DNA of 62,019 nt, filler included. It is 10 parts of 10 records of this genome, joined end to end, with 100 filler letters (N's around TTAATTAATTAA, not from the genome) between each part and the next. Parts side by side here need not be neighbours in the genome. Positions count along the whole stretch, not along the records: positions 56,125 to 62,019 come from SRR31147125_242631; 9 more parts are not named here. The stretch is one strand, 5' to 3'. Below the pieces are notes generated by a model, which saw only the letters and a program-made list of their open reading frames with translations, was not told the DNA's origin and searched no databases. Position numbers and translations under genes: made by a program. This document shows positions 5,787 through 62,019 of the stretch, piece by piece (within the stretch, counting starts at the first letter, position 1; each line of letters starts with the position of its first letter).

Positions 5787-5804
5787 AAAAAAAGTTCTGG
5801 GTTT
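5774..5804 (+). promoter_or_regulatory. Direct repeat with 21-bp period upstream of the second receptor, putative AraC-family site
   Basis: TTCTGGGATTTAA at 5774 and TTCTGGGTTTAA at 5795. Confidence 0.5.
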
Positions 5805-5876
5805 AATATCCCTCCCCTCTCTCCTCCCCTATACTGGGTGCTGGTATTGTGAATACGTTTGCAAAAGGAGATTTAG

Positions 5877-8056: not shown

Positions 8057-8066
8057 AGGAGACAAA

Positions 8067-8500: not shown

Positions 8501-8600
8501 NNNNNNNNNNNNNNNNNNNNNNNNNNNNNNNNNNNNNNNNNNNNTTAATTAATTAANNNNNNNNNNNNNNNNNNNNNNNNNNNNNNNNNNNNNNNNNNNN
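8501..8600. other. Artificial contig linker
   Basis: N44-TTAATTAATTAA-N44 (stops in all six frames). Confidence 0.99.
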
Positions 8601-9344
8601 CGAATACGGCATGTATGCCTGGACTCCTGAAGACGCCGTTCTGGCCCTAAGGGAACAGGCCGTCACCCTGTACGCAGTCCGGTTCGGCCCTGACCGGGAC
8701 ACGGCCCTGGCGGAAGTCGCCCGTGCGACCGGAGGAGCCGTGTACGATATCGACGGTGAATCGGAGTTGGAGGGCCTGTACGGACGAATCAGGGAGCGGG
8801 TCCTGGCCGAGTACCGGATTTCCTATCGTCCCCGACCCACCGGCGCCGTCCGGACAGGCGTGGCGCTGGAACTTGTCTCCGGTTCTTCCCGGGGCGAACT
8901 GGAGTACCTTTCCGGTTTCGTGATGGGCAGTCCTGCCGGCATGAACCATGTATTGCTGTCGCTGCTGGCCATTCCCGCGGCAGCGCTCATCCTGTGGCTG
9001 CTGTTCCGGCTGAAAGCCGCCGATATGCCCGACAATGCGTCCCTCGGACGGCTCCGCCCCAACCCGGCGAGAGCGCCACGGTTGTTCTGAGCCAAGGTAA
9101 AACGGTGATCTCCCCCGGCCCCGGTGGATCGGGAACGGTCATCGCGTCCTCCGACTCCGGCGACGCGCCGGCTTCATCCGGTGGAACCATCATCGTGGAG
9201 CAGGGCAAAGACGGAAAATGGCGGGCCAGCGGAAAAGAGACCCTCGTGGTGAACAACCGGAAGGTGGATTCGACGGTCCTGGAAGACGGTGACGTAATCA
9301 GGGCGGGTGAGGAGCTGATCGTCTTCGACGATGGGAACAGCTGA
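8601..9344 (+). CDS. VWA-domain membrane protein with C-terminal FHA-like domain (5' partial, frameshift near 9058)
   Basis: VTLYAVRFG...LAEVARATGG (VWA C-terminus), a TM helix, then TLVVNNRKV...LEDGDVIRAG (FHA C-terminus). Confidence 0.65.
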
Positions 9345-11079
9345 CCGGCACCCCTACCTGAGTGAGGGGATCATCGCCTATATAGGCAACAAGCGCCGGC
9401 TCCTGGGACTCATCGGAGAGGCGGTGGCCCGGGCGGCCGGCCGGTCGACCGACCCAGGCAAATTCGGTGATTCACAGTCCGGTACCCCGGGCAGCGGTCC
9501 CCTGGCCGGCCTTCGTTTCGCCGATCTCTTTTCCGGCAGCGGCATCGTCTCTCGTTTTGCCCGTTTTCAGGGCATGCATGTGACGGCCAACGACTGGGAA
9601 CCTTATGCGGACGTGCTTTCCCGGGCATGGCTGCAGCCGCGGCCGGAGGACATCACCCGGATTTTCGGTTCGCCCGACGGTCTGGAACGGGCCATCGGCG
9701 AACTGAACCGGCTGTCGGCACCATCGGCGGAAGACACTTATCTGGCCCGGTACTATGCACCGTCGTCCTTCAACAACGAAGAGGCCGATTACAGACGGGA
9801 GCGTCTGTTCTACACTAGGGAAAACGCCCTGAAGCTGGACGCCGCCAGGGATTTTCTCGACGGCATGGATCTCTCCGATTCACCGGAAGGTCCGGGAGAT
9901 GATGATGAACGGATGCGCCGGAGCTTGCTCCTTGCCCCGGTTATCTACGCCGCCGCCACCAATGTGAACACATCGGGGGTATTCAAGGCCTACCACCGGG
10001 GATTCGGCGGCCATGGGCGGGATGCCCTTGGCCGGATTACCGCGCCGATTCAATTCCGGGCACCGCGGATTATCGACGCGCCTGCCGGTCGTGTCTTCTC
10101 CATGGATGCGGCAGAGCTTGCTGGCAGTGGGGCGATCCGTGACGTGGACATCGCCTATCTGGATCCGCCTTACAATCAGCATCAATACGGCAGTAATTAC
10201 CACCTGTTGAATACCCTTGTGCGATGGGACAGGATACCCGAGCCTCTGGAACTCGGTTCCGACGGACGGCTGCTCAGGAAGGCCGGTATCCGTCAGGACT
10301 GGACCGAAACGCGCTCGCCTTATTGCTCCGGCAGAACCGCCGAGGCGGCGTTCGGCGCACTGCTGGAGAACCTGGAGGCGCCGCTTCTCCTGATCAGCTA
10401 CAGCACCGACGGCATCATCCCATTCAAAAGGTTGCGCAGCCTCTGTGAAGGCTACGGACGGCTCAGGCTGGAAGCCAATCCCTATGTCACCTACCGTGGT
10501 GGCCGCCAGAGTGTGAACCGGCGGGACGCCAATCTCGAGTTCATCCTGATAGTGGAGAAGGGGAAGACCACAAGCCGGAATGATAGAAACGGCCTCGATG
10601 CCGTCCTGGCCCGGCGAAAGCTGCAGCTGGCCGGCGGCGATCTGTATCGCCCGGAGAAATTGAGAACTCTGGGTAAGGTGGACGGCAGCATCTGGACGCC
10701 TTGTCTTCCGGGAGGGGCGATATCACTGCCAACCATCCACCTGGCGCGGCTGGAAAGGCTGCCGGATCCCGACAGTCTTTCTGGAAAGGACGTCAGGGCG
10801 CTTTCCGAACTTCTTGATGAAGCACGATGCCGGAGCCGCGATGAAGAACTGCTGGTAATCGAGGAAATATGGAAACAGAATCCCGGCCGCTGCGCGGGGC
10901 TGCTCAAACAGGCGCCGAGGATACTCCGTAAGATGGCGCACCGCAAATACAGAGACGAGTACGAAGGTCACCTGAAAACCCTGAAGGAAATCGGGAATGT
11001 CCACAGTGAGGATTTCCTGTCGATCGCCGGCTCCCTGGAGAAGGTGGAATTGATCGCCGAACGTCGATTCGCCGGCTGA
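9331..11079 (+). CDS. DNA adenine methyltransferase (D12/FokI-like) with C-terminal extension
   Basis: YIGNKRRL, DLFSGSG (motif I) and YLDPPY (motif IV). Confidence 0.9.
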   Translation: MGTADRHPYLSEGIIAYIGNKRRLLGLIGEAVARAAGRSTDPGKFGDSQSGTPGSGPLAGLRFADLFSGSGIVSRFARFQGMHVTANDWEPYADVLSRAWLQPRPEDITRIFGSPDGLERAIGELNRLSAPSAEDTYLARYYAPSSFNNEEADYRRERLFYTRENALKLDAARDFLDGMDLSDSPEGPGDDDERMRRSLLLAPVIYAAATNVNTSGVFKAYHRGFGGHGRDALGRITAPIQFRAPRIIDAPAGRVFSMDAAELAGSGAIRDVDIAYLDPPYNQHQYGSNYHLLNTLVRWDRIPEPLELGSDGRLLRKAGIRQDWTETRSPYCSGRTAEAAFGALLENLEAPLLLISYSTDGIIPFKRLRSLCEGYGRLRLEANPYVTYRGGRQSVNRRDANLEFILIVEKGKTTSRNDRNGLDAVLARRKLQLAGGDLYRPEKLRTLGKVDGSIWTPCLPGGAISLPTIHLARLERLPDPDSLSGKDVRALSELLDEARCRSRDEELLVIEEIWKQNPGRCAGLLKQAPRILRKMAHRKYRDEYEGHLKTLKEIGNVHSEDFLSIAGSLEKVELIAERRFAG

Positions 11080-14186: not shown

Positions 14187-14286
14187 NNNNNNNNNNNNNN
14201 NNNNNNNNNNNNNNNNNNNNNNNNNNNNNNTTAATTAATTAANNNNNNNNNNNNNNNNNNNNNNNNNNNNNNNNNNNNNNNNNNNN
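14187..14286. other. Artificial contig linker
   Basis: Same 100-nt linker. Confidence 0.99.
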
Positions 14287-14706
14287 CCGCTGCTGCTGGC
14301 CTCCGGAGAGCTGGGAGGGCTTCCGGTCGTCATAGCCCTGAAGCTGTATCATGTCCAGGATGGCCCGGCCTTTTTCGATGGCCTCGGCTTTCGGGACTTT
14401 TCTGGATATGAGGCCGAAACAGACATTCTCCATCACCGTGAGGTGAGGAAAGAGGGCATAGCTCTGGAAGACGGTGTTCACCGGACGTTCCCTGGCCGGG
14501 ACAGGGGTGATGTTGTCGTTCCCTAGGATCACCAGGCCGCCGTCGGCCAGCTCCAGGCCGGCGATGATACGGAGCAATGTCGTCTTGCCGCATCCCGAGG
14601 GACCCAGGAGAGTAAAGAACTCTCCGGCCTCCACTTTGAGGTCTACACCCTTGAGGGCATGGACGTCTCCAAAACTCTTGCGTATCGCGTATGCATTCAG
14701 GCTCAT
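14287..14706 (-). CDS. potA: Spermidine/putrescine ABC ATPase (partial)
   Basis: GPSGCGKTT, RPVNTVFQSYALFPH, LSGGQQQR. Confidence 0.8.
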
Positions 14707-14794
14707 CACCGCCTGAAAACGCAAACCACATGCCAGATTTCGGAATGGCTGGATATGAATACAGCTTAATACTTACGGATCAAGGACATATTTT

Positions 14795-25310: not shown

Positions 25311-26305
25311 CAGAAGGCATTGCCGTGATCAACGGCGGATCTTCGAGCATCAAATTTTCCGTATTTTCAAGTGAGGAAAACAGGCCCCCGGAATTTTGTT
25401 TCGGCGGGCAGGTGGAAGGCATCGGCGTGGCGCCCAGGTTTGTGGCCAAAAAGCCGGACGGAACCTTGATGGAAGAAAAAAATGGCAAAGCAGTCCGGGT
25501 CTCAACCGCCGGAGCCTATTGGAATTTTTGATCGAGTGGGTTTCGGAGAACCTGGGCGATATTAAAGTAAGGGCCGTGGGGCACCGGGTGGTCCACGGTG
25601 GAGAACGATACAGCTCTCCTGTCCGTGTGGAACCCTCGGTTTTGGAGACATTGGACGCCTTCATTCCCCTGGCGCCCCTTCATCAGCCTCACAACCTTCT
25701 ACCCATCCTCACCCTCGCGGAAATCAACCCGGATTTACTACAAGTGGCCTGCTTTGACACGGCATTTCATGCAACCAATCCGGCGGTGGAAAGAAATTTC
25801 GCACTCCCGCGCAGACTCACGGAGGAAGGTATCCACCGATACGGGTTTCATGGTCTCTCCTATGAATACATTGCCCGAACCCTGCCGGGAATCGATCCAA
25901 AAGCCGCTGACGGCAGGGTCGTGGTGGCCCACCTGGGAAGCGGTGCCAGCATGTGCGCCATCCGGAAAGGAAAAAGCATCGCTTCCACCATGGGGTTCAC
26001 TGCCGTGGAAGGTCTGCCCATGGGCACCCGAACCGGCAGTCTCGACCCCGGCGTTATGCTCTACCTGATGCGCCAGAAAAACATGGATGGAGATGCCATC
26101 GAAAACCTGCTGTACAAGCAGTCGGGACTGTTGGGCATTTCCGGTATCAGCAATGACATGCGCGTGCTAATCGATAGCGATGATCCGAAAGCCAGGGAAG
26201 CCATCGATCTTTTCGTCTACCGCATCTGCCGTGAACTTGGCAGCCTGTCGGCCGCCGCTGGGGGATTGGATGCCCTGGTGTTCACCGCCGGCATCGGCGA
26301 AAATT
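25307..26305 (+). CDS. ackA: Acetate/propionate kinase (partial; frameshift in A run near 25480)
   Basis: INGGSSSIK, GHRVVHGG, FDTAFH, RYGFHGLS, MGTRTG. Confidence 0.93.
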
Positions 26306-26405
26306 NNNNNNNNNNNNNNNNNNNNNNNNNNNNNNNNNNNNNNNNNNNNTTAATTAATTAANNNNNNNNNNNNNNNNNNNNNNNNNNNNNNNNNNNNNNN
26401 NNNNN
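26306..26405. other. Artificial contig linker
   Basis: Same 100-nt linker. Confidence 0.99.
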
Positions 26406-27096: not shown

Positions 27097-29697
27097 ATGA
27101 GACTGTGCAAAAACCCAAGATTCTGATCGTGGATGATGCTCCTGAAAATATATGGACACTCATTGAAAATTTGGAAAAAACATATGAGGTCATGTATGCC
27201 ACCAGTGGAGAGGACGGCCTGGAAATCGCTTTCTCAGACGATCCACCGGATCTGATTCTTCTGGACATCATTATGCCTGGAATGGACGGATATCAGGTCA
27301 TAAAACAACTGAAAGGTGAAAAACAGACCTGTGACATTCCGGTGATTTTCCTGACCGCCAAAACCGACGACGAAGATGAGACGGAAGGATTCAGGCTGGG
27401 GGCATGGGATTATATCACCAAGCCTTTCAGCATGCCTGTTGTAAAGGCCAGGATTCAATCCGTTATCAATCTGAAACGGGAAATGGACCGCAGGTTCTTT
27501 CTCAAAACCCAAATGGAACGCCTCAATTTGCAGCTGGAGAGTCAAGTTCAGCAAAAAATTGAAGAGCTCCAAGAAGCCAGGAACGCACTGGATTTTCATG
27601 AAAAAAAGTACCGTCTTCTTTTTGAAAAATCCGACAAAATTACCCCTTCCCGGAAAAAGATACTGATTGTGGATGACAATCCGGAGAATATTCATCTCCT
27701 GTCGGATAACCTGGAGGAGGATTATGAGATTCTGTATGCCACAGACGGAAAGGATGCCCTGGAAACGGTTTTCTCCGGAGATCATCCGGATTTGATTCTT
27801 TTGGACATCATGATGCCGGGTCTGGACGGGTATGAGGTTTGCGGAAGGCTGAAGGCCAATGCCGAAACCTGGGAGATTCCCATCATCTTCATCACTGCAA
27901 TGAATCGGGAGGATGATGAAACAAAAGGACTGAAACTGGGAGCCATTGACTATATTTCCAAACCGTTCAGCATGGCGGTCGTTCGGGCCAGAATATCCAC
28001 TGCATTGCGTCTCCAGGAGGAGATGGATAGACGTATCATGCTGACACAACAACTCAAGGAGATGAATCAGGATCTGGAAAACAGGGTCAATGAACAGGTG
28101 GTAGAGTTAAGGCAGGCCCATGAGGCGCTAAAAGAGAGTGAGAGTCGATACCGTTCCATTTTTGAAAATGCGGTGGAAGGAATTTTCCAAGTGTCGCTTG
28201 AAGGCAACATGTTGGATGCCAGTCCGTCAATGGCACGGATTCTTGGATATGACTCTTCTGAAGAGTTGATTTCATCTGTCACCGATGTAGCGACCCAATG
28301 TTATTTCAACCCGGATGATCGCAGTACGCTTCTCCATTTACTGGCTCAAGCTCCCGATGGAGTGGTCCGGGGATATGAAACCAGAATGAAAAAAAGGATG
28401 GGAGCATCATTTGGGTCTCATTTTCAATCCGGTTTGTGTCTGGTGACCGAGGGCAGACCCTCTTTACCGAAGGATTCTGCATGGATATTACCGGACAGAA
28501 AGAAACTGAAAAGCGTCTTCGGGAGAGTGAAAAACAACTTCGCCAGGCCCAGAAAATGGAAGCAATTGGTACGCTTGCCGGTGGAATTGCGCATGACTTC
28601 AACAACATTCTTCATCCAATTATGGGGCATGCGGAACTTCTTTCAAAAAAATTACCTGATGCGAGTCCGTTTAGAAAGCACCTTGAGCAGATTCAATCAG
28701 CATCAAGGCGGGCGAAAAAACTGGTGGAACAGATTCTGACATTTTCCCGTCAGCAGCCCGGAGAAGTTCGACTGATGGGAATACAGCATATTGCCAAGGA
28801 AGTCATTAACCTTGTCAGATCTTCAATTCCCGCCAACATAAACATCCGGCAAAACATTGATAATCAGTGTGCTCCAATCAAGGCGGATCCAACCCATATT
28901 CATCAGATATTAATGAATCTTTTAACCAACGCCTATCATGCCATGGAGGAGAGTGGCGGAGAGCTGACAATAACCCTCAAAGAGGTACTGGTAGATGCCC
29001 ATCAGATACCCGTCTTGGATTTAAAACCCGGCAATTATGCCTGCCTCACAGTTGCGGATACAGGTACAGGAGTACCGGAAGAGATGAAGGAAAAAATCTT
29101 TGACCCGTTCTTTACCACAAAACCAAAGGGAAAAGGCACCGGGCTGGGTCTTTCAGTGGCTCACGGCATTGTAAAAAGCACTGGTGGCACAATAAACCTC
29201 TTTAGTATCCCCGGCAGAGGGGCAGAGTTTCATGTTTATCTGCCCATCGCCGAAAGTTCCGCAAAAAAAGAAATCAAAGCCGTACCAGTGTCAAGGAGGC
29301 CATTTGCGAGGGAAATGAAAAGATTCTTTTTGTGGATGATCAAGAAGAGAACATCGTGATTGCAGAACAGATGCTGGAGCAATTAGGCTATCAGGTGATT
29401 TCATATACCGACAGCCCTGCCGCCCTTGACGCTTTCAAAGAAAATCCTGATCAATTTGATATGGTCATGACTGATCTGGCAATGCCTGGGATGACCGGAG
29501 ACAGATTGGCCGTTGAACTCTTAAAGATACGTCCGAATATTTCAATATTGCTATGCTCGGGACTCAGTGATCAATTGAGTAAACAGGAATTGCTTTCTGT
29601 TGGTATAAAGGGATTTATATCAAAGCCTTACAATGAGAATGAGCTTTTTCAAAAAATTCGTGAACTGCTGCGATTAAAGAGCGGTTCACAGTTGTGA
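27093..29697 (+). CDS. Hybrid kinase REC-REC-PAS-HisKA-HATPase-REC (two frameshifts)
   Basis: Two ILIVDD/PDLILLD receivers, [28 protein letters not shown] and a final REC. Breaks near 28390 (A run) and 29290. Confidence 0.85.
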
Positions 29698-30029: not shown

Positions 30030-30045
30030 TGGTACTCTTCTTGCT
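30030..30045 (+). promoter_or_regulatory. Sigma54 -24/-12 promoter
   Basis: TGGTAC-TCTTC-TTGCT, about 100 nt upstream of the permease. Confidence 0.7.
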
Positions 30046-30142: not shown

Positions 30143-31576
30143 ATGGGATTTCATTTGAGTCATGCATTGAGAGAAGATGGTAAAGAACAGCCAGGTATCA
30201 AAATGGGGATTTTTACTTTCAGACTCCCCTTTGTCCATTATCCTGTGGAAATGCCTGAAGTCATCCAAGCACTTTTTATGTTTGTTACCGGACTGGCTGC
30301 CACAGCTTTTTTGCAGGATATGTTTGGTATGCCATTTGAGATTGCGCTGACCATTGTGCTGTTTCATGAAATTACCTATTGCCTTCATCAAACATTGGGA
30401 GATCCGCTTATATCTGGGTGGATCACTCCAGCAGTCCCTTTAACCATTGGATTTTTGGGTAAGTATTCCATGGGAATTGACAGGCTTGAAGCATTGATCG
30501 CGCTTCAGGTTTGCGTGGGAATTCTGTTTCTTGTTTTCGGGATCACCGGCATGGCAAAAAAACTGACCACCTGGCTACCCAATGCAATCAAATCTGGTAT
30601 CATCATGGGGGCTGCCATTGCAACGGTCGTCGGCAAATATGGCTTTCTTCCTGCAGCCGCCGGCGGAAAAGGCTTTGCCGTTTATCCATTCAGCATTTCA
30701 ACCGGGATGGGGATCGCATTTTTTCTTCTTTTTTCAAAGGGCTTTAAACAGATGCGCCGGCAAGCCAGTGTCGGCAGCATGGTCGGCATCGTTGCTAAAT
30801 ACGGCATGGTTCCCGGCATTATCGGGGGAATGTTGGTTGGGTTTATTACCCAAGAAGTGCCGCTGCCAACCATTGACAACTGGGGCTTTTTTCTCCCTCA
30901 TTTCGGAACCGTATTCTCTGAATGGTCAATTTTCGGAGTTGGTGTCCCGTCATTTGACGTGATTGTTTCAGCCCTTCCCATGGCGGTTGTCGCCTATATC
31001 ATTGCATTTGGAGACGTTGTCGTGGGGGAAACCGTTATGAAGCGAGCGAACAAGCTCAGACCGGATGAGCATATTGACATGAATACCAATCGTACCAATG
31101 TCGTTTGCGGAATTCGCAACTTGATTGAAGGATGCCTGGCTCCCACAGTCACTTTGGCCGGCCCCCTCTGGGCAGCAATGACAGTGGCGGTAACAGAACG
31201 ATATACACAGGGTAAGGAAGCCATGCACTCCATTTTCGGGGGGACCGGAACGTTCAATATCACGAAATTCATGTGTCTGTTCCTGGTTCCCTTGGTCTCC
31301 ATTTTTAAACCCGTCCTTCCACTGGCCATTGCTTTGACGTTGATGGTGCAAGCATTTGCTTGTTTCTTTATTGCCCTGGAGATGGTGGAAACCTCGGAAG
31401 AAAGAGGCGTCGCCGGTGTTACAGGCGCTATCCTTGCAGTCAGCGGTGCAGCATATGGTCTGGCAGCTGGATTGATTTTATATTTTTTGATCATGAAAAT
31501 GGGATTTCGATCATCCGACAAATCGTCGATAGAAGAAGTCAATTTAGCCATAAAACCTGTATCGATTAAAAATTGA
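30143..31576 (+). CDS. Polytopic membrane transporter (NCS2/xanthine-uracil permease-like), substrate unknown
   Basis: Many hydrophobic segments, GWITPAVP, AYIIAFGD; RBS AAGGAG. Confidence 0.7.
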   Translation: MGFHLSHALREDGKEQPGIKMGIFTFRLPFVHYPVEMPEVIQALFMFVTGLAATAFLQDMFGMPFEIALTIVLFHEITYCLHQTLGDPLISGWITPAVPLTIGFLGKYSMGIDRLEALIALQVCVGILFLVFGITGMAKKLTTWLPNAIKSGIIMGAAIATVVGKYGFLPAAAGGKGFAVYPFSISTGMGIAFFLLFSKGFKQMRRQASVGSMVGIVAKYGMVPGIIGGMLVGFITQEVPLPTIDNWGFFLPHFGTVFSEWSIFGVGVPSFDVIVSALPMAVVAYIIAFGDVVVGETVMKRANKLRPDEHIDMNTNRTNVVCGIRNLIEGCLAPTVTLAGPLWAAMTVAVTERYTQGKEAMHSIFGGTGTFNITKFMCLFLVPLVSIFKPVLPLAIALTLMVQAFACFFIALEMVETSEERGVAGVTGAILAVSGAAYGLAAGLILYFLIMKMGFRSSDKSSIEEVNLAIKPVSIKN

Positions 31577-36748: not shown

Positions 36749-37030
36749 ATGAGCCCAGAGACTCCATCTGCAAGTCAGGATACGGCGCGCCCCTGCCTCT
36801 ATTTAATTGACGGCAGCGCCTATGTCTACCGCGCATTTCATGCCGTTCGCGGTTTAAGCAATTCCAAAGGAATGCCCACCAACGCTGTTTTCGGTTTCAC
36901 GCGCATGTTGATCAAGCTGATTCAGGACCGCAGCCCCGGGCATATGGCCATGTTTTTCGATGCCAAAGGGCCCACATTCCGCCACGAGCGCTATCCCGAT
37001 TACAAGGCCAACCGGCCGCCCATGCCGGAG
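36749..37030 (+). CDS. polA: DNA polymerase I, 5'-3' exonuclease N-terminus (partial)
   Basis: LYLIDGSAYVYRAFHA, PTNAVFGF, FRHERYPDYKANRPPMPE. Confidence 0.93.
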
Positions 37031-37130
37031 NNNNNNNNNNNNNNNNNNNNNNNNNNNNNNNNNNNNNNNNNNNNTTAATTAATTAANNNNNNNNNNNNNN
37101 NNNNNNNNNNNNNNNNNNNNNNNNNNNNNN
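37031..37130. other. Artificial contig linker
   Basis: Same 100-nt linker. Confidence 0.99.
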
Positions 37131-40852: not shown

Positions 40853-41125
40853 TTATTCCACCACTTTAAAGCTGGTCACGGTGATGGTCTTGATGCCCTC
40901 TTCTTCCATCAGGGTGCCCTGAACCACAACCTTTTTGCCGGTATTTTCAGCAAGCTCTCCGCCCTTTTCATCATCAGCGACCTCATAGACATCACCCGCT
41001 GCGGTGACGATCTGAAAGTCGTCGGTCATTTCGCCGGAGACGGTCACATCACCAGCCACGGCGATACCGATACCGAAAATGGCCAAAAAAACGAGGGTAA
41101 GCAACACGCAGGTTTTTGCTTTCAT
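40853..41125 (-). CDS. Small exported OB-fold-like protein
   Basis: RBS AAGGAG, signal peptide MKAKTCVLL..., GKKVVVQGTL. Confidence 0.75.
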   Translation of the reverse strand: MKAKTCVLLTLVFLAIFGIGIAVAGDVTVSGEMTDDFQIVTAAGDVYEVADDEKGGELAENTGKKVVVQGTLMEEEGIKTITVTSFKVVE

Positions 41126-41176
41126 TTTATTCTCCTTGTCTGAGTTAGGAACGAATATTTCGTCGTTATCACCATA

Positions 41177-41192
41177 ATCAATTTGTGTGCCA
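41177..41192 (-). promoter_or_regulatory. Sigma54 -24/-12-like promoter
   Basis: Minus strand TGGCAC-ACAAA-TTGAT (variant -12). Confidence 0.55.
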
Positions 41193-41573
41193 TATTTTAA
41201 CCTGCTGTATTTATACAACTTTTTCTAAGATGTGCTTTGAGGTTCGGAACCCGAAGTTCCGCCATATAAGCCGCAGTGCTTCGCCCGTTGGCTGATGGCC
41301 GATTTTGAATTTGTTTAGGCGGGTGATTCCCCATAGAGGAAGTGGAATCTTCGGTTCCTGTTCAGGAGAAAAAGGAACTCACATTTCTTATCTATCGCAT
41401 GGATCATCGCAAGAGGGTCTGATTCCATAATCTAATCTTAATAAGGCCTGGAAGATAAATATCGTTCCTGGATTTTCTCCTATTAGCGGCAATCAGGCAT
41501 TGATTGATCTGTTCACCTTTATTATGTAAAGATTCATTTGTTCGGGTGCAACCCAAAGCTTGCAGAGGTGCCA

Positions 41574-42249
41574 TTGCAATCCCTGTTGATCATCTCCACC
41601 CTAAGCGGACGACATTGAGAAGATTCGATCAGCTTTCGAACCTGGCGTGAACATCGAAAGCGCAGTCGATGTCCCGCAAGCCGCCAAAATGACTGAACAG
41701 ACGCGATATGACGGCTTGTTTGTCGATCTGGAAATACTGATGAATTCGATGGGCGACGATGCGTTCAGCACGATTGCAGATCTTTTTCGAAAGCAGACCC
41801 CCTCCATAACAATCGTCGTCATGGCGGCACCCGGAAAAATTCGCCAGGCGGTTAGCATGGTCAAGCAAAGCGCTGACGACTACATCACCTATCCCATCTC
41901 CTGTGACGAAGTGCTGCTGGTAGTCGACACCTTAAAGAAAACAGAAATTCGTCAATCGGAACTGGACTATTTGCGGGATAAATTCTGGAAAGATGATGCC
42001 CGAGAGGTGATCCAAACCAAAAGCCCGGCGATGGCCTCGGTGTTTAAGAAAATCCGATCGGTGGCGGCCACCAAGACAACGGTGCTCCTGACCGGTGACA
42101 CCGGCACCGGGAAAAGCGTGATGGCCAAATTGATTCACCAGCACAGCAACCGCCATCGATCTCAATTTATCAGCGTGCATTGCGGCGCCATACCGGACAC
42201 GCTGCTCGAAAGTGAACTTTTCGGCCATGAAAAAGGGGCTTTTACCGGG
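41574..42249 (+). CDS. Sigma54-dependent regulator, REC-AAA+ (partial; probable frameshift near 41600)
   Basis: GDTGTGKS, HCGAIP, ESELFGHEKGAFTG. Confidence 0.88.
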
Positions 42250-42349
42250 NNNNNNNNNNNNNNNNNNNNNNNNNNNNNNNNNNNNNNNNNNNNTTAATTA
42301 ATTAANNNNNNNNNNNNNNNNNNNNNNNNNNNNNNNNNNNNNNNNNNNN
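42250..42349. other. Artificial contig linker
   Basis: Same 100-nt linker. Confidence 0.99.
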
Positions 42350-48089: not shown

Positions 48090-50730
48090 GCAGAGAAGTT
48101 GGTGTGGAACAGCCCCGAGGTGAAGCCGTGGAGTGTGTGTACGGTGGCAGGAGTGTGTTTACAAAGGTTCTGCGTCTTCACAAGGGCTTTGGGGTCAAAC
48201 CTGTGTACACTGCGGACGACGTCAAGGACCTCGAGGTGGATCAGCTGCCGGGCGTGTATCCGTTCACACGTGGGCCCTATGCTACAATGTATACACGTGC
48301 GTTATAAGGACAAGAACAGTGAACGCACCAGAACGCTGAATTGAACGCCGCCCCAGAACGCCCGTGGACGATTCGTCAATATGCGGGATTCTCAACGGCC
48401 GAGGAGTCGAATGCTTTCTATCGTGCAAATCTTGCTGCTGGGCAAAAGGGCTTGAGTGTGGCTTTTGATCTTGCTACACATCGTGGGTGTGTACGGAGTC
48501 ACAGAAGGAAGATTGTGCGAGAAGAGTTGCTAATAGCCGATCCAGATATGATTCCGATCATCCACGTGTGCAAGGTGATGTGGGGATGGCCGGTGTGGCC
48601 ATTGACAGCGTGGAAGATATGAAGATCTTGTTTGATGGTATTCCACTGGATAAGATGTCCGTCAGCATGACCATGAATGGTGCCGTTCTTCCTATCATGG
48701 CCATGTATATTGTTGCAGCCGAGGAGCAAGGTACACACATCACAAAGTGGAACATCGGATATCTGACCCCGAGCACAGGTGTTAAGCCCAAAGACTTGAC
48801 AGGAACCATTCAGAACGATATTTTGAAGGAGTTCATGGTTCGAAACACCTACATCTACCCCCTGAGCCCTCTTTGCGAATCGTATCCGATGTGATGGGAT
48901 ACACGGCCAAGAACATGCCTCGTTTCAATTCCATTTCCATTTCGGGATATCATATCCAAGAGGCAGGCGCTACGGCTACGATCGAGTTGGCGTTCACCAT
49001 TGCAGACGGTCTGGAATACGTTCGATGTGCCCAACGCGCCGGTCTGGACGTGGATGCCGTCGCACCACGTTTCTCCTTTTTCTTCGGCATGGGATTGAAC
49101 TTCTACTTTGAAATTGCCAAATTGCGAGCGGCACGACGTTTATGGGCAAAACTAGTCAATGAGGAATTTCATCCTCAAAAGGAGGAGTCTCTACGTCTGC
49201 GTACCCATTGTCAAACATCTGGCTGGTCCCTGACCGAACAGGTGACGTAACGAGACACCCTCCCCCCACGCACACACACGCACACAGCCCACACACGCCC
49301 ACACACGCCCACAGGATCCGTACAACAACATCATTCGAACAACCATTGAAGCCATGGCCGGAGCTTTGGGTGGTACCCAGAGCCTTCACACCAACTCCTT
49401 TGATGAGGCCATAGCGTTACCGACAACCTTTTCCGCACGAATGTCTCGCAACACCCAACTTATTCTCCAAGAGGAGGCAAACATCTGTCGAGTATGTTGC
49501 TATGCATGCAGCATTTGCTTGCTCATATCAATCACATGGCACAGGTGGCGGATCCGTGGGCTGGATCCTATATGATGGAGTCCCTGACAAAGGAACTTGA
49601 AGATGGTGCCATGAAAGTGATCAAGGAGGTGGAAACAATGGGAGGAATGGCCAAGGTGCGCATATATCTCCTTGCACACACTTCTAACTTGTTTCAAAGG
49701 CTATTGTGGCTGGAATGCCCAAGTCCAAGATTGAGGAATGCGCAGCCCGTAAGCAGGCGTGCATCGATTCAGAATCCGACGTTATTGTGGGCGTCAACAA
49801 GTATCGTCTTGAAAAGGAGGAATCCATTCAGGCTCGTCAAATCGATATGTCCGCCGTTTTGCACTCCCAGCTTGAGCGCTTGGAGAGAGTGAAGGCAACA
49901 CGTGATCCCGTGAAGGTACAACAAGCACTGAACAAGCTAACCAAGTTCACCGAGACGGGCGAGGGCAACTTGCTCGAGGCATCGGTCGAAGCTTCACGCG
50001 CCCGGTGTGTTGGAAGGGTGTTATGTGTATGGGGACGTGAGAATGATAGAGTAAGGAATTCAGGTGTACCGTTGGGGAAATCAGCGGTGCCATTGAGGCG
50101 ATTGTGGGGCGTCACAAGGCTGTGGACACCGTTATCAGTGGTGTCTATCGCTCAAGCTTGGGGAAACAGGCTGAGGACTCTGTTCACCAAGTACTGAGTC
50201 GAGTAGAGACGTTCGAGAAGCTCGAAGGGTTTGTGTCCCGTGTCCCGTGTTCCAGCCTTTTTCCTGACAATGCGCCCTTCAAAGCCGTCGACCCAGAATC
50301 CTTGTTGCCAAAATGGGCCAAGATGGACACGATCGCGGTGCCAAAGTGATCGCATCGGGCTTTGCTGACCTCGGATTCGATGTCGATGTTGGCCCCTTGT
50401 TCCAAACCCCCACGGAAGTTGCCAAGCAGGCAATTGAGGCAGATGTCCACATTGTGGGCGTGAGTTCCCAGGCAGCAGGCCATCTAACTCTCGTTCCGGA
50501 AATGATGAACGAGCTAAAGAAACAAGGCGGAGAGAGCATCAAGGTTGTTGTGGGCGGTGTCATCCCTCCCCTGGACTACGATGCATTGTATGACATGGGT
50601 GTATCGTGCATCTTTGGACCAGGTATGTGTACGTGTGTCCTGTACCAATCTAACAACACACACAGGCACGAAAATCGCGGATGCTGCTTCGGGAGTGTTG
50701 GATTCTTTCAAGAATGGAAGCAACCAGTAG
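48090..50730 (+). CDS. MMUT: Eukaryotic methylmalonyl-CoA mutase, spliced, 10 introns (5' partial)
   Basis: Removing GT-AG introns 48120-48184, 48297-48356, 48487-48545, 48731-48778, 49242-49314, 49492-49544, 49656-49699, 50005-50063, 50229-50284 and 50623-50665 restores [35 protein letters not shown] and [19 protein letters not shown]. One C is missing near 48860. Confidence 0.95.
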
Positions 50731-56544: not shown

Positions 56545-58817
56545 GAGGTTCTCTCCATTCTTTTTTCAGGGGATCGCTCGACTTCAACCAGGGCGCTGTT
56601 CATGGGAAAGGCGCCACCGGGAGACGGTTCGTCCAGGGTCAAGGTGTTGCCGCAACCGCCGAGGTCCACCCCCTTTTCATCGGGAGCATACCAGGCGCCC
56701 TGAAAAACATTGACCACGCCCGGCATGATGCGCTCGGTGACCCGGGCGGTCGTACGGATTCTGCCGCGATCATTAAACACATCGATCGTGTCGCCGTCAT
56801 CAATCCCCCTTGCTGCTGCATCTGTGGGGTTTATCCAGGTACACTGGCGCTCCAGTTCCTTCAGCCAGGGAACCCGCTCGAGGGTCGAATGGGTGCGGAT
56901 CTTCGAGTGGGCGGTGAGCAGCTGCAGGGGATATTTCTCAGCCAGGGATGCATCGTAATGTTCGCTGTGGCCGAGGTACTTGGGAACCGACGGGATGCGT
57001 GGATTGTTCATCTCGGCCAGGTGGTCGCACTCGATCTCTATCTTGCCCGAGAGAGTGGGGAACGGATGATTGTCCGGATCCTCGACCTGTTCTTTGAATG
57101 CCACGATCGGTTCAGGCATCTTGATTTTCAGAACGCCTTCGCGCCGCATTGCGTCGTAGTCCTCGATATCCTTTCGGCGCGAGGTGAAGATGCGCAGGAT
57201 CTCGTCATCGGAGAGCTTGAAAAAATCGTCGGGCACGCCCAGACGCGGCGCCAGCTCCCGGCAGATCTCCAGGTCCGATTTCGATTCGTATAGGGAGTCG
57301 ACCGCCTTATTGAGGTAGATGTAGTAGGGCGATCCGAGCCAGGGCGGCGCGATGTCGGTACGCTCCATGAAGGTGTTGACCGGCAGGACGATGTCGGCAT
57401 GCCTGGCGGTGGCGGTCATAAACTGCTCGTGCACAACCACAAACTCGAGTGATTTCAACGCCTCTGCGCCACGGTTGCTGTTGGGGTACTGGTTGAGGCA
57501 GTTGCTGGCCACGATGTAGGCCATTTTGAGATCCGCCGGATAGCCCCCCGCCCTGCCGCGCAAGATGGCGTCCCAGATCTTGCTCTGATGGATGCGGGCA
57601 CTGGTGGCGTTGGTGCCGCCGCTCAACTTGAAAAGGGTGTTGGGGCGTGGCAAGGCGCCGTTCTCCACCGCATTGGACGAAGGAATGCCTTTGGACTTGT
57701 CGATTTTCTTCTTGGGGTCCTTCTTCATGAGATGGCCGGTTTCACGACTGGAATAGGCCCGCATGAAGCCGGAGGCGTATCCGCCATTGATCCCCACATT
57801 GCCGGTGAGAGAACACAACACCGCCGCGCTGCGGGCATACTGTTCACCGATGGCCGTTCGGGCCGGTCCCCACCCGGCGATGAGTGCCGCCGGCTTGGAA
57901 GTTGCGTAAGCCCTGGCCAGCTCGAGGATCCGGTCCGCAGGCACCTTCGTGATTGCCTCCGCCCATTGAGGCGTTTTGGGAACGCCGTCCTCGCTGCCCA
58001 GCACGTAGTCTCTGTACGCCTTGTATCCTACCGTGTGTTTTTCGACAAAGGCTGCATCGAACAGCGACTCGCTGATGATCACATGGGCCATGGCGGCCAG
58101 CATGGCGGCATCGGTGCCCGGCCGAATGGGAATCCATTGATCGGCAAAGGTAGCAACCGAATCGGTGTAGCGCGGATCGATGGCCACGATGCGGGCGCCG
58201 TTCTCTTTGGCGCGCGCCAGCCAGAGGCCGGTCTCCGGATCCCAGATGGTGTTGGCCGGGTTCCAGCCCCACATGATGATCAACTTGGAATTGAGCAGGT
58301 CCTCGCGTGAATGGCCGGTTCGAATCGTTCCATATGTGGCCATAGACGCAAACAGTGCCCCTTCATAAGAAGGGATGCCCCAGTAGCGGGTATAACCGCC
58401 GAACTGGGTCAACAGCATGCCCGGAGCGGTCGGTCCGTGGAGCATCCCCTGGTTGCCGGCCCCCGGCAGAAAAAGGATGGCGCTGTTGCCGTAGGTGGAC
58501 TTGATTCGCTTCAGTTGGTCGGCCACCGTGTCGAGTGCTTCATCCCAGCCGATCCTTTCAAACCTGCCCTCGCCTCTTTGGCCGACCCGACGCAACGGAT
58601 GCTTGAGGCGGTCGGGCGAATATAACCGTTGGCGATAGGCGCGGCCGCGGGAGCAGGCACGGACCTGGGGAGACTGCCCCGTATCGGACTCAAAACGGAT
58701 GATCCTGCCGTCCTTGACATGCGCCTTGAGCACGCAACGTCCGCCGCAATCGTGGCAGCAGCCGGTATTGACAATGGAAACAGCGCCATCGCTCGTTCTT
58801 GATGGCCCATCGGTCAT
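56541..58817 (-). CDS. dmsA: DMSO reductase-family molybdopterin oxidoreductase, catalytic subunit
   Basis: CCHDCGGRC, DRLKHPL, IRPGTDAA, ADIVLP, RTHST, GAWY. Confidence 0.85.
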   Translation of the reverse strand: MTDGPSRTSDGAVSIVNTGCCHDCGGRCVLKAHVKDGRIIRFESDTGQSPQVRACSRGRAYRQRLYSPDRLKHPLRRVGQRGEGRFERIGWDEALDTVADQLKRIKSTYGNSAILFLPGAGNQGMLHGPTAPGMLLTQFGGYTRYWGIPSYEGALFASMATYGTIRTGHSREDLLNSKLIIMWGWNPANTIWDPETGLWLARAKENGARIVAIDPRYTDSVATFADQWIPIRPGTDAAMLAAMAHVIISESLFDAAFVEKHTVGYKAYRDYVLGSEDGVPKTPQWAEAITKVPADRILELARAYATSKPAALIAGWGPARTAIGEQYARSAAVLCSLTGNVGINGGYASGFMRAYSSRETGHLMKKDPKKKIDKSKGIPSSNAVENGALPRPNTLFKLSGGTNATSARIHQSKIWDAILRGRAGGYPADLKMAYIVASNCLNQYPNSNRGAEALKSLEFVVVHEQFMTATARHADIVLPVNTFMERTDIAPPWLGSPYYIYLNKAVDSLYESKSDLEICRELAPRLGVPDDFFKLSDDEILRIFTSRRKDIEDYDAMRREGVLKIKMPEPIVAFKEQVEDPDNHPFPTLSGKIEIECDHLAEMNNPRIPSVPKYLGHSEHYDASLAEKYPLQLLTAHSKIRTHSTLERVPWLKELERQCTWINPTDAAARGIDDGDTIDVFNDRGRIRTTARVTERIMPGVVNVFQGAWYAPDEKGVDLGGCGNTLTLDEPSPGGAFPMNSALVEVERSPEKRMERTS

Positions 58818-59197
58818 AGTATCCTCCTCATTATCATCGAAATCTCATAAAGGTTCACCTTGAACGAAATCATGCTTTTGATGGTGCCGATTTACATCAA
58901 TAGAACAACCTGGTGGTCAGAATCAAGTGATTGATAAAATCGGCCACTGTTCGATATCATCGAATTAGCGTTCATCTTTAAATAGAGTATAGACAACGCC
59001 CTTACAAAAGTGCATTTTATGAGGTATGTTTTGCTTTGACCGGGATCGATCTGGATCGATCCGGACCCGCGCCATTAACAATTGAAGATGAACCGCGATT
59101 TTCAGCGAGCCGACATTGAACAAAATACAACCCATCTCAATCCGATAACGATATATTTTCGATATAATTGTTTAATTTATAAAAAAGGAGCAGTATA

Positions 59198-59722
59198 ATG
59201 GCTGAACCGATTAAAAAAATTCTCTTTACGTCCGATCTTTCCGAGGAATCCATAGAAGTTTTCGAACAGACGGTAGGGTTGGCGTTTCAAACCGGCGCCT
59301 CAATCACCTTGCTGCATGTCATCGACAACCTCACCTCCGACAACCAGAAGCGAGTCAGCTATTTCATCGACAGTGAACTTTATGAAAGAATCAGGCAAGA
59401 GGGTCAGGAAACCGCCCAAAAGGCGCTGATCGGCAAACAGAAGTCCCTTCCGGTCATTCAGCAAGCCATGCAGGAGCACTATGTAAAAACATCTGAAAAA
59501 GTGAGTGGCTCGGGGAATCCGGTGACCATCGATTCAATTCAGGTCTTGTACGGCAATCCGGCCGAGAAGATTCTGGAGGTTGCAGAGTTGTCGCTATGCG
59601 ATTTGATTGCCATGGGCTATCATAAAAAGGGTTCGATATTCAGAGCGCTTGCCGGAAAAGCCGAAAAAGGGGTGATGAAAAGGAGTAAAAAACCGCTCTT
59701 CCTGGTGCCGCTCGGCGAGTAG
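59198..59722 (+). CDS. Universal stress protein
   Basis: KKILFTSDLS, ITLLHV, GNPAEKIL, DLIAMG, PLFLVP. Confidence 0.9.
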   Translation: MAEPIKKILFTSDLSEESIEVFEQTVGLAFQTGASITLLHVIDNLTSDNQKRVSYFIDSELYERIRQEGQETAQKALIGKQKSLPVIQQAMQEHYVKTSEKVSGSGNPVTIDSIQVLYGNPAEKILEVAELSLCDLIAMGYHKKGSIFRALAGKAEKGVMKRSKKPLFLVPLGE

Positions 59723-60109
59723 CGGAGTTCATCGGCAGCATCAACTTCAAAACTGATGTTGCCGATCAAAATGGAGCCCCTTTCGTTTGGCCGCATTGGA
59801 AAGGGGCTGCAGAAATATGGATCGTTTCTATTCAGAACCCGTCGAGGCAAACCGAACCGTCCTAATTATCGTTTCGATTCGGCGAGACGTTGACTAACTT
59901 TCGCGTTTTTGACATAACCCCCATGGGATAGGCTTCAACTCCTCCACGTCTTGCAAAATCTAAACGGGTCCCGTTTGCCTAAGCATCCTCCCCTGTGCAA
60001 AAAGGTGACGGCATTAATTAACCATGTTGCTATCCTGGTTGCAAACTCAGCGCGGTCACTTCCATTACAGTGCCAGGGTCGAGTCTGTTTCTGACTAACG
60101 GTTGGTGGT

Positions 60110-61462
60110 ATGAAATCCAAATTCGACATTCTCATTATCGACGACGATCAATTTGTGACCGAATCACTGGCAGAGTTCCTCTCCATGAATGAGTACAATG
60201 CCCTTATCGCTGATAACGGTGCAAGCGGACTCGACCATTTTGAGACCTACCATCCGCCCATCGTACTACTGGATCAAGAGCTGCCGGACAAAAAAGGTCT
60301 CGACGTGTGTCGCGATATTCTCGAACTGGACCCCTCCGTCAAAATCATCTTCATCACGGCGCACGCATCGATCCGCTACGCGGTGGATGCCATGCAGACC
60401 GGGGCGTTCAACTACCTGCCCAAGCCGTTTTCACTGGAAGAGTTGTTGATATCAATCCAGATGGCATCCAAAAGCTTGAAGCTCGAAGGCAAGCTCAAAG
60501 CCCAGGAGTATGAGAACAAGCGCAAACGCACCGGAACAAAGCTCATCGGCCGATCGGATGCAATCGGCCGGCTGCGCGACCAGATCGATCTGGCGGCGGC
60601 ATCGGACTCGGCGGTGCTGATCACGGGTGAGACCGGTGTTGGCAAAAACCTCATCTCCAAAGAGATTCATCGACGCCAAAACGCACGGGAGCCGTACCTG
60701 ACCATCAACTGTTCGGCCATCCCCGAAAATCTGATCGAGTCGGAATACTTCGGCCATGAGAAGGGGGCATTTACCGGGGCGGATACGCGCCGGGAGGGCA
60801 TCTTCGAACTGGCCGATGGGGGGACGCTGGTCCTGGACGAAATCGGCGACATTCCCTACCATCTCCAAAGCAAACTTCTCTCGGTATTGGAAGAGAAACA
60901 GGTGCGCCGCATCGGAAGCGCCCACTCCATCAACGTCGATGTCCGTATCATCGCCCTGACCAACCGGGATCTGGCCGAAGCCATTCGGGAGAAGCACTTC
61001 AGGGAGGATCTTTACTATCGCCTGGCGGTTATCCACATCAAAGTGCCTACGCTGCGCGAGCACATGGAAGATGTGCCGGAACTGGTAAAATATTTGACCG
61101 GTATTTTCTGCGGTGGAAACGTCACCATATCGGACAGCCAGCTGGACAGGCTCATGGCCTATTCATGGCCGGGAAATGTGCGCGAACTTCGAAATATCAT
61201 TGAACGTGCATCGCTTCTTCGCCAGGGCAATGAGATTCTACCGGCCGAGCTTCTGGCCACATCCAGTAACGAATCCGCTGAAATGGACTGTCTCGAAAAG
61301 CAGTCGCTCACTGCCGAAACGATCATGCCCTTGGAAGAGATCGTCAAGCGGCATATCCTGGGAGCGCTTAAGGCATGCGATGGCAACAAGAGCCAGACAG
61401 CAAAGCAGCTGGGACTCTCCCTTTCAACACTGAAAAGGAAGCTAAAAACTTACGAAAATTAA
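60110..61462 (+). CDS. NtrC-family sigma54 response regulator (REC-AAA+-Fis HTH)
   Basis: IIDDD, GETGVGK, GAFTGA, WPGNVREL, GNKSQTAKQLG. Confidence 0.95.
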   Translation: MKSKFDILIIDDDQFVTESLAEFLSMNEYNALIADNGASGLDHFETYHPPIVLLDQELPDKKGLDVCRDILELDPSVKIIFITAHASIRYAVDAMQTGAFNYLPKPFSLEELLISIQMASKSLKLEGKLKAQEYENKRKRTGTKLIGRSDAIGRLRDQIDLAAASDSAVLITGETGVGKNLISKEIHRRQNAREPYLTINCSAIPENLIESEYFGHEKGAFTGADTRREGIFELADGGTLVLDEIGDIPYHLQSKLLSVLEEKQVRRIGSAHSINVDVRIIALTNRDLAEAIREKHFREDLYYRLAVIHIKVPTLREHMEDVPELVKYLTGIFCGGNVTISDSQLDRLMAYSWPGNVRELRNIIERASLLRQGNEILPAELLATSSNESAEMDCLEKQSLTAETIMPLEEIVKRHILGALKACDGNKSQTAKQLGLSLSTLKRKLKTYEN

Positions 61463-61464
61463 AC

Positions 61465-61522
61465 GGACCAAAACTGGGTCAATATGACCCGATAGCTCAT
61501 TTTGGACCAGTCCATCTGAACC
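61465..61522. promoter_or_regulatory. Putative enhancer (UAS) boxes
   Basis: Palindrome GGGTCA-ATA-TGACCC at 61476-61490 plus degenerate copies (GCTCATTTTGGACC, GTCCATCTGAACC), followed by an AT-rich tract. Confidence 0.6.
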
Positions 61523-61621
61523 ACTTCCCTATTTAGAGCCCATCAAACGTATCAATTTCAAATACGTTATCCTTCTATTTTTATTATATTTTATAATATA
61601 ATATACAATATTTGAACTAAG

Positions 61622-61637
61622 TGGCACATATCTGGCA
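61622..61637 (+). promoter_or_regulatory. Sigma54 -24/-12 promoter
   Basis: TGGCAC-ATATC-TGGCA with GG-N10-GC spacing intact. Confidence 0.65.
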
Positions 61638-61647
61638 TTCGAGCTAT

Positions 61648-62019
61648 TCCGAGATAAGCCGCTACAATATTCAAGAGTGGAAGATGAAACTGCTGAGCTG
61701 AAATTGAGTGGAAACGGTATAAAGGGACCGAAACGGAATCTGCGACTGAAACTGAGCTGACTGGTTAACTTGAGCACGACTACGGAGCTGTAATTCAGGT
61801 ACCAATAGCTGAAATCAAATTACGACGATCATACTGAGCTGAAACCTCCCTTCCCCATACCTGTGACAATAGATATGACCCCTGATCCGGATCTCGAACT
61901 AAAAAGGAGCTGATGTAGCGGCTTCTTCTTTTTCTAAAGGCGTCGCGAGGTATATATACCCTCTAAATATATCTCCATTTAAAACGGAATCCCCCGACCT
62001 CAGGGGGATTCCGTTTTTT
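61648..62019 (+). ncRNA. Candidate ~370-nt repeat-rich non-coding RNA
   Basis: Lies between a sigma54 promoter and a terminator; no plus-strand ORF of 60 aa or more; repeated AGCTG(AAA); 11-bp long-range stem. Confidence 0.55.
61981..62019 (+). terminator. Intrinsic terminator (possibly bidirectional)
   Basis: AAAACGGAATCCCCC-GACCTCA-GGGGGATTCCGTTTTTT. Confidence 0.9.

Follow-up and report, generated by a model that had tools for sequence, protein, structure and literature searches.

A conserved, activator-linked candidate non-coding RNA carrying a CUGA array downstream of an NtrC-type regulator gene

To our knowledge, only a few bacterial systems in which an RNA titrates a protein are understood (CsrB/CsrA, CrcZ/Hfq-Crc, 6S RNA and GlmY), all of them from a few model groups. 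CsrB, RsmY and RsmZ carry many copies of a word of 3-5 nt on one RNA and titrate the dimeric protein CsrA, and CrcZ of Pseudomonas, which lies downstream of cbrB, displays a short single-stranded motif several times over and works by titration. The subject here is a region (positions 61465-62019) of a 62,019-nt stretch of DNA, apparently that of a sulfate reducer and referred to below as the window, which follows the gene of an NtrC-type regulator and very probably holds a conserved, activator-linked gene of a non-coding RNA (ncRNA). The layout of an activator gene followed by an RNA is already known from CrcZ, NrsZ and ncRNAs of Desulfovibrio. The accessible text of one report mentions an RpoN promoter for CrcZ, places that of the Pseudomonas RNA NrsZ in the tail-to-tail gap between ntrC and PA5126, and describes the NrsZ repeats as whole stem-loops with an identical loop of 8-12 nt that are processed to about 40 nt (PMC4253122). 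The available portions of two further papers describe sigma-54 dependent ncRNAs of Desulfovibrio vulgaris downstream of DVU0653 and DVU0679 (Dv_sRNA2) (PMC3333781, PMC4641369) and credit sulfate reducers with many sigma-54 activators, several of which target ncRNAs of unknown function (PMC4641369). The comparison with cbrB-crcZ that was drawn in an earlier note on this DNA was apt, and as far as these partial texts go the same layout recurs in ntrC-nrsZ and in the Desulfovibrio ncRNAs (PMC4253122, PMC4641369, PMC3333781).

Homologues were sought only through the linked activator gene. A contig scan with the activator protein as query yielded 80 loci, of which L001-L041 match it over its full length at 55-84% identity and come nearly all from metagenome assemblies assigned to Desulfatitalea, Desulfobacterales or "delta proteobacterium". 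Seven of them (L001 to L006 and L038), all Desulfatitalea-like genomes from metagenome assemblies, make up together with the window the set of eight on which the comparisons below are based. Activator orthologues of 68-84% identity precede the RNA in these seven, and the RNA unit follows the activator gene in every one of the eight loci in which the activator is at least 68% identical and downstream DNA is available; the contig of L007 (73% identity) stops inside the activator gene and is not usable for the presence of the RNA. A blastn search with the intergenic region of the window matched L001, L006 and L002 only, and the homologues in L003, L004, L038 and L005 were recognised by eye and by conserved arms in the downstream DNA. 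A profile built from the eight RNAs found the same eight and no more in the window and all 80 loci (none in the other 73). These sequences show a discrete, non-coding unit that all eight genomes of one lineage keep beside the same activator gene, and the activator gene and the RNA are the only pair linked throughout the eight loci.

The features of the locus are collected in Table 1. The activator has the domains Response_reg, Sigma54_activat, AAA_lid_14 and HTH_8 in Pfam, with a helix-turn-helix of the Fis type, and is an uncharacterised NtrC-family response regulator, since no NCBIfam equivalog cut-off was reached. Just past its stop codon, about 140 nt upstream of the -24 box, stands a perfect palindrome (GGGTCAATATGACCC, 61476-61490) which is flanked by an inverted repeat (GGACCAAAA/TTTTGGACC, 61465-61473/61500-61508). 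Half-sites resembling TGACCC or GGGTCA occur 15-60 nt past the stop codon in all eight RNA loci and in many loci of the operon type considered below; the pattern GGGTCANNNTGACCC has four matches in the window at up to two mismatches, compared with 3.6 expected. In the 70 nt leading up to the -24 box A+T makes up 84%, as against 46% in the whole window, and the corresponding tract reaches at least 67% A+T in seven of the eight loci, a strict IHF consensus being present only in L006 among them. The promoter sequence TGGCACATATCTGGCA has one mismatch to TGGCAC-N5-TTGCW. Three such one-mismatch patterns were found in the window where 2.2 would be expected by chance, so the match alone is not significant and it is conservation that carries weight: TGGCA[CT] and an element 10 nt further on are aligned in all eight loci, with the -12 GC kept in five of them and TTGAT in L003, L004 and L038, and the binding sites and the AT tract are aligned along with the -24 box. 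The window has the GG-N10-GC promoter of activator-adjacent sigma-54 ncRNAs and, as in RNAs of that layout, the putative binding sites would lie about 100-150 nt upstream, by the activator gene. The NtrC-type gene, palindromic upstream boxes, AT-rich tract, -24/-12 promoter and strong terminator that the earlier note had seen in this order are thus all present. Two further one-mismatch sigma-54 matches lie elsewhere in the window. One, at 30030-30045 on the plus strand, is about 100 nt before an open reading frame (ORF) of 477 aa without a Pfam family (30143-31576), itself downstream of Hpt, response-regulator/PAS and receiver genes. The other, at 41177-41192 on the minus strand, falls in the 3' part of a minus-strand ORF of 121 aa without a Pfam family (40853-41218), upstream of a minus-strand gene cluster and about 450 nt from a divergent truncated activator fragment at 41647.

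Table 1. Features of the activator-RNA locus, in positions of the window
Feature	Position	Strand	Remarks
NtrC-type response regulator / sigma-54 activator gene	60110-61462	+	450 aa; presumed activator of the RNA promoter
Presumed activator binding sites	61465-61510	.	Palindrome and flanking inverted repeat; candidate from sequence
AT-rich tract	61552-61621	.	Between binding sites and promoter
Sigma-54 type -24/-12 promoter TGGCACATATCTGGCA	61622-61637	+	Predicted start near 61648, from spacing
5' arm of closing helix	61651-61666	+	Core AGCCGCUACA at 61657-61666 and leader extension at 61651-61654
Interior	61667-61913	+	Ten CUGA motifs, no conserved secondary structure
Conserved GGAAGAUGA box	61679-61687	+	About 12 nt past the 5' arm
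Alternative local hairpin AAGGAGCUG/CGGCUUCUU, then CUUUUUCU	61904-61935	+	Nine pairs, four of them G-C
3' arm of closing helix UGUAGCGGCUU and U-rich tail	61914-61930	+	Tail pairs with 5' leader; inverted-repeat scan and consensus folds
3' extension	61936-61980	+	Poorly conserved in alignment
Strong two-way intrinsic terminator	61981-62017	.	15-bp stem, A run before, T run after

No plus-strand ORF within 61640-62019 is longer than 27 aa, in keeping with the absence of any sizeable one that the earlier note had reported. Across the eight loci there are ORFs of 15-102 aa on both strands, the longer ones on the minus strand, as is expected because the plus strand is full of UGA. The conserved small peptide that the earlier note had held out as an alternative was looked for; no ORF on either strand is common across clades, and the lack of a conserved reading frame is shared with activator-adjacent ncRNAs. 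That a small protein is encoded here is hardly credible: the GGAAGAUGA box does resemble a ribosome-binding site with an AUG, and ORFs of suitable size can be found, but the one from the conserved AUG ends after five codons in the window, single-base indels separate close relatives, and frames break between the near-identical L003 and L004, an 88-aa minus-strand ORF of the former being split in the latter. A search of Rfam 15, which the earlier note had suggested as a check of novelty, matched no family: over 58000-62019 and at E up to 1 there was only a chance NrsF-like match, which lies on the terminator and scores 20.5 bits (E 0.69) where the gathering score is 60, five loci gave nothing at the gathering score, and the RNA regions of L003 and L005 gave nothing at E up to 5. 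In the literature, subscription journals and the Desulfovibrio supplements being outside the coverage, neither this RNA nor any bacterial RNA with a CUGA array was found described; the word CUGA led only to snoRNA, ribozyme or unrelated papers, and Desulfatitalea small RNAs to none. Both the RNA family and the CUGA motif appear to be undescribed.

The word CUGA occurs ten times in the window RNA, at 61693, 61698, 61746, 61752, 61757, 61809, 61834, 61839, 61882 and 61910, all of them between 61657 and 61924, and no other stretch of 268 nt in the window holds more than seven. Each of the eight RNAs has 8-11 copies (75 in total), a density of 29-41 per kb compared with 3.0-4.2 per kb in the flanks of the same loci, or about 8-10-fold. 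Dinucleotide-preserving shuffles, which retain much of the CUGA signal, gave a mean of 34.7 against the pooled 75 (z = 8.4, top of the 256 tetramers), and for the window, L001, L006, L002 and L005 taken singly only 0-6 of 1000 shuffles reached the observed count. All four positions are specific, with 75 copies of CUGA and at most 24 of any single-base variant (NUGA: C 75, U 18, A 12, G 6; CNGA: U 75, G 21, C 7, A 1; CUNA: G 75, A 10, C 3, U 3; CUGN: A 75, C 24, G 15, U 13). Longer words are less frequent in the eight interiors (GCUGA 30, CUGAA 36, AGCUG 14). The copies often stand as doublets or triplets 5-6 nt apart, the extreme being (CUGAC) x 4.8 in L005; a tandem-repeat search found this repeat alone and no repeat module in the window RNA. 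Some sites that read CUGA in one of the near-identical L003 and L004 read UUGA in the other, and the totals stay at eight and nine. The six AGCTG cores that the earlier note had singled out are all where it had placed them (61696, 61755, 61786, 61807, 61837 and 61908, with CTGAGCTGA at 61693, 61752 and 61834); AGCTG occurs 59 times on the plus strand of the whole window (0.95 per kb), and four of the window's 13 copies of GAGCTGA are inside 61695-61913. As the motif of the RNA, AGCUG gives way to CUGA, which is the family-wide word, AGCUG being a subclade flavour confined to four RNAs. The ANGGA motifs, to which the earlier note had also drawn attention, are near chance, with five in the region and 1-4 in each RNA, as is GGA (4-10 per RNA, about 4 expected).

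The complement of the motif, UCAG, occurs once in the roughly 2,180 nt of the eight RNAs, where roughly 8 would be predicted from the flanks. UCAG is U33 plus the anticodon of tRNA-Leu(CAG), and its near absence inside would leave CUGA free to pair in trans, so the RNA might be imagined as a decoy for another RNA such as a small RNA or a tRNA loop with UCAG. This is quite improbable, as pairing over four bases would need a structured pocket to be strong enough, the motif's flanks are not conserved and no candidate partner was seen.

The CUGA array is enclosed by a pair of arms, AGCCGCUACA and UGUAGCGGCU, that are invariant in all eight RNAs; likewise common to all is AGCCGCTACA followed 267-285 nt later by GTAGCGGCTT, which is also the range of the enclosed length. 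The 11-bp stem proposed in the earlier note, between 61656-61666 and 61914-61924, is perfectly complementary over its 11 nt, and the closing helix is predicted to span 10-16 bp, with the 5' end pairing about 260 nt downstream. Nine of its pairs are identical in all eight RNAs and the tenth is A-U in six and A.C in two; the core is without covariation because the arms never vary. The covariation among homologues for which the earlier note had called amounts to one compensatory change in each extension and none in the invariant core. In the leader/tail extension of the window subclade the window has G-C and the other three A-U (pair 6-294), and in the inner extension of the other subclade three have A-U and L005 has G-C (pair 24-300). 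All eight RNAs have the helix in their minimum-energy fold when taken in the short form, cut just after the tail, and five of the eight do in the long form, cut at the terminator. The near-invariant blocks of the alignment are the -24 box TGGCA, the 5' arm, GGAAGAUGA, and the 3' arm with the UU that follows; the interior aligns poorly (about 47-52% column identity), and an RNAalifold consensus of the eight consists of the closing helix and only eight weak pairs. Shared interior helices were considered and rejected, these eight pairs being poorly kept and the subclade folds disagreeing with each other. Near the 3' arm a local hairpin (61904-61927), mutually exclusive with the closing helix and judged by eye to be kept with one-sided changes in L001, L006 and L002, is followed by CUUUUUCU; in the folding models the two together form a possible early terminator that would compete with the closing helix.

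Two other features of the RNAs may be recorded. The palindrome GGUACC is present in the window (61799-61804), L001, L003 and L004, at a relative position that differs between the two subclades, and L006 has the palindrome GGAUCC at the place aligned with it; this could be chance or a self-pairing (dimerisation) site. In the 3' extension there is a C-rich word, CACCCUCCCUC in L001 (5838-5870) and L006 (5838-5862) and CACCCUCCUCU in L002 (5845-5862), which resembles an anti-Shine-Dalgarno sequence, is absent from L003, L004, L038 and L005, and is apparently paired within a local hairpin in L006 and the window.

The tightly held enclosed length (267-285 nt) would suit an RNA that forms a compact scaffold and is read as a whole, its CUGA, GAUGA and GAAA words making tandem sheared G.A pairs or kink-turn-like elements, which standard folding programs model poorly. 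CUGA is the box D word and RUGAUGA the box C word of kink-turn RNAs, CUGA and GAAA are core words of the hammerhead, and UGAA can pair with itself through tandem G.A pairs. Such a structural role is nevertheless improbable. RUGAUGA is found in none of the eight RNAs, let alone by the terminal helix and paired with CUGA as in box C/D and kink-turn RNAs, and CUGANGA is found once; GAUGA lies 16 nt from the helix, compared with the 3 nt needed by a terminal kink-turn; no ribozyme or other Rfam family was matched; and the movement of CUGA sites between close relatives is unexpected for fixed tertiary contacts. Specific readings as a kink-turn, box C/D or hammerhead RNA were rejected for the lack of RUGAUGA in the eight RNAs and of an Rfam match.

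The GGAAGAUGA box raises another possibility. It is exact in seven of the eight RNAs (L002 has GAAAGAUGA), the GAUGA within it is invariant in all eight, and no conserved pairing partner was found for it in these RNAs, all of which would suit the seed of a base-pairing regulatory RNA of the NrsZ or Qrr kind; either the box or exposed stretches of CUGA would then pair with mRNAs, and the RNA may be cut shorter. The layout of NrsZ agrees, its available description giving an RpoN promoter in the tail-to-tail gap after ntrC and repeated modules (PMC4253122). We consider base pairing unlikely all the same, in that only 4 nt are common to all the repeats, which is too short for specific pairing, and the flanks vary. 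Repeated stem-loops are lacking, including any with an identical loop of at least 8 nt as in NrsZ; the longest exact internal repeat is the 11-nt CTGAGCTGAAA in two copies, and no repeat unit exceeds 11 nt except for matches of 64-80%. The box resembles a ribosome-binding site rather than the complement of one, and neither its complement TCATCTTCC nor the arm sequence has another exact match in the window.

We tentatively read the locus as the gene of an ncRNA, some 285-370 nt long and from an undescribed family, that would act as a multivalent decoy, a reading to which, taken whole, we give not quite an even chance. In this scheme the NtrC-type regulator would bind the palindromes just past its own stop codon and, across the AT-rich tract, would activate the sigma-54 promoter, with transcription starting near 61648. 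The ends of the RNA would pair into the closing helix around the CUGA interior, protecting both ends and holding the array together. When the two-component system is on, the array would titrate an RNA-binding factor, likely a multimeric protein reading the 4-nt word, and so relieve the mRNA targets of that factor, as CrcZ does for Hfq/Crc and CsrB for CsrA. The decoy (sponge) mechanism by itself we regard as possible, short of probable; it is ranked first because of the 4-nt core with variable flanks, the many copies, the spacing of 5-6 nt, the avoidance of the complement and the lack of conserved internal helices, traits more readily reconciled with a multimeric RNA-binding protein than with base pairing. 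A short motif in many copies, enriched and strand-specific (75 CUGA against one UCAG, z = 8.4), as is typical of protein sponges, is what the eight RNAs have. Of the earlier note's proposal, a protein-sequestering RNA with a different motif, the conserved, non-coding unit without an Rfam match has held; the motif is CUGA and not AGCUG, and sequestration is suggested by motif multiplicity, strand asymmetry and the lack of conserved internal structure.

Several observations weigh against the decoy reading. The eight sequences represent only about four independent lineages, and in L003, L004 and L038 the per-sequence test for CUGA is weak, 19-41 of 1000 shuffles reaching the observed count. That all eight RNAs have their CUGA columns better conserved than the remaining interior columns (0.86 vs 0.62 in the window) speaks for the motif, but the test is biased and inflated by the tendency of aligners to anchor on shared words. 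In single-sequence folds CUGA has only a slight lead over the remainder in being unpaired (0.48-0.63 vs 0.39-0.49), and none in L006. The -12 GC reads GA in three of the eight loci, and start site, transcript length and dependence on the activator are all predictions. For pairing of the core of the closing helix the grounds are complementarity and energy and not covariation; in the predicted 372-nt transcript of the window the fold of lowest energy takes the local hairpin and not the long-range helix, which has a pair probability of 0.14 at full length and costs 2.9 kcal/mol to force, and the same replacement is seen in L006 and L038. Finally, neither the window nor the literature searched yielded a candidate CUGA-binding protein. 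We know of no such protein.

The relatives of the activator that lack the RNA offer a different perspective on the locus. There are 33 other orthologue loci (L008-L041 with L038 set aside; 55-62% identity), and in 28 of them a five-gene operon comes after the activator gene, encoding a short histidine kinase without a sensor, a Roadblock/MglB-like protein, a Ras-like GTPase and two proteins without a family; in L016, where the operon is at 5595-8741, the latter are of 243 and 156 aa and have no Pfam or NCBIfam family. As for the remaining five, the contigs of L014, L024 and L031 end early, and L018 and L026 have neither operon nor RNA. Downstream of the activator gene, and at a distance that varies, 25 of the 32 scanned operon-type loci have a -24/-12-like box, and sites of the TGACCC type precede the operon in many of these loci, not all. 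As far as the available description of it allows comparison, the operon resembles the actinobacterial conservon, a G-protein system, and it is apparently a conservon-like G-protein module under sigma-54 control. The leaders of the operons in these sister loci are not enriched in CUGA (7 in 2936 nt). A quick tree, in which L007 was labelled as RNA-type though its contig ends inside the activator gene, groups the RNA-type activators with one change needed at a weak support of 58 and unites the operon-type activators in a clade of 31. The simplest reading of these sequences would be that one lineage exchanged the output of the promoter module. That the two-component system swapped its output from operon to RNA, with the RNA as the sponge half of a new CUGA-reader pair, is more doubtful; if true, it would be a post-transcriptional switch distinct from Csr/Rsm and Crc/Hfq. 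In L021 the long leader between promoter and kinase gene (about 5800-6060) holds a long inverted repeat (GCTGAGCATGGAGATATC ... GATATCTCCATGCTCAG), which may be an inserted small mobile element.

Since sister lineages carry an operon here, with the same module driving it, and transcription of the unit is predicted from sequence, it might also be asked whether there is any function at the RNA level, or whether the region is merely an orphan promoter left by loss of the kinase-GTPase operon, or a DNA-level element. This is very improbable in view of the invariant arms and the box kept in seven of eight RNAs, across lineages with interiors about 50% identical, the maintained length, the strand asymmetry of CUGA over UCAG and a terminator visible in seven of the eight loci. 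No remnant of any of the five operon proteins was found by tblastn in any RNA locus within the fetched flanks. A tblastn match to the kinase elsewhere in the window (28586-29242) was rejected as an unrelated kinase of 22% identity.

The terminator at the end of the window is formed by arms at 61981-61995 and 62003-62017, and an equivalent hairpin is present in all the other loci except L005, where it was not in the stretch read. The earlier note had allowed that it might serve only a convergent gene beyond the contig; the hairpin is two-way and probably does serve a convergent gene as well, which leaves the conserved RNA domain upstream unexplained. In L001 and L006 such a gene ends about 20 nt beyond the hairpin. 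The genes beyond the RNA differ between loci, being a convergent prismane/CO-dehydrogenase gene in L001 and L006, a convergent MFS gene in L003 and L004, a GAF gene in L005, a DUF2889 gene in L038 and a gene of unknown family in L002. Before the activator gene the window, L001 and L002 carry a gene for a universal stress protein, and L006 has an ORF that matches it in size and place; the others lack it. A number of genes of the window look split or truncated (48487-50194, 41647-42294, 36749-37078, 25396-26361 and 14239-14724), among them methylmalonyl-CoA mutase, spread over three neighbouring ORFs that match successive parts of PF01642, a second sigma-54 activator in the form of a 216-aa fragment, a 109-aa N-terminal piece of a 5'-3' exonuclease, and a partial acetate kinase and ABC ATPase. 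Assembly indels or pseudogenes are thereby suggested, and single-base details of the window RNA need care. At 9331-11079 a 582-aa protein with a D12-class N6-adenine DNA methyltransferase domain is encoded beside DUF3276, OmpA-like and SMC/AAA genes, perhaps as a component of a restriction or defence island.

The value of these results is limited by the family having been seen in only eight genomes of one lineage. A conserved RNA with a sharp 4-nt motif is a concrete handle toward a new RNA-binding regulator, and if, as it appears, an RNA has taken the place of a G-protein signalling operon behind the same promoter, this would be a clean case of regulon rewiring. Compared with CrcZ, the locus has the same succession of activator gene, binding sites, sigma-54 promoter, long non-coding RNA and terminator, and a short motif in many copies; it differs in having no Rfam match, in the CUGA motif and the long-range closing helix, and in that the A-rich word of the CrcZ type, AANAANAA, is present in none of the eight RNAs. 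The likeness to CsrB and the Rsm RNAs lies in the many copies of a short word on one RNA, whereas here GGA and ANGGA are near chance, no Rfam family is matched and the words are not in repeated hairpin loops. With NrsZ, as partially described to us, the locus shares an RpoN promoter directly after an NtrC-type gene, a gap facing a convergent gene and a modular repeated RNA; the shared unit here is 4 nt, and there are no repeated hairpins and no sequence match. The ncRNAs of D. vulgaris, with which the comparison is by description only, have no CUGA array or closing helix in the accessible accounts. They too belong to a sulfate reducer, in which, according to the same accounts, the mapped target of a sigma-54 activator of the response-regulator type is an ncRNA that lies directly downstream of the activator's own gene.

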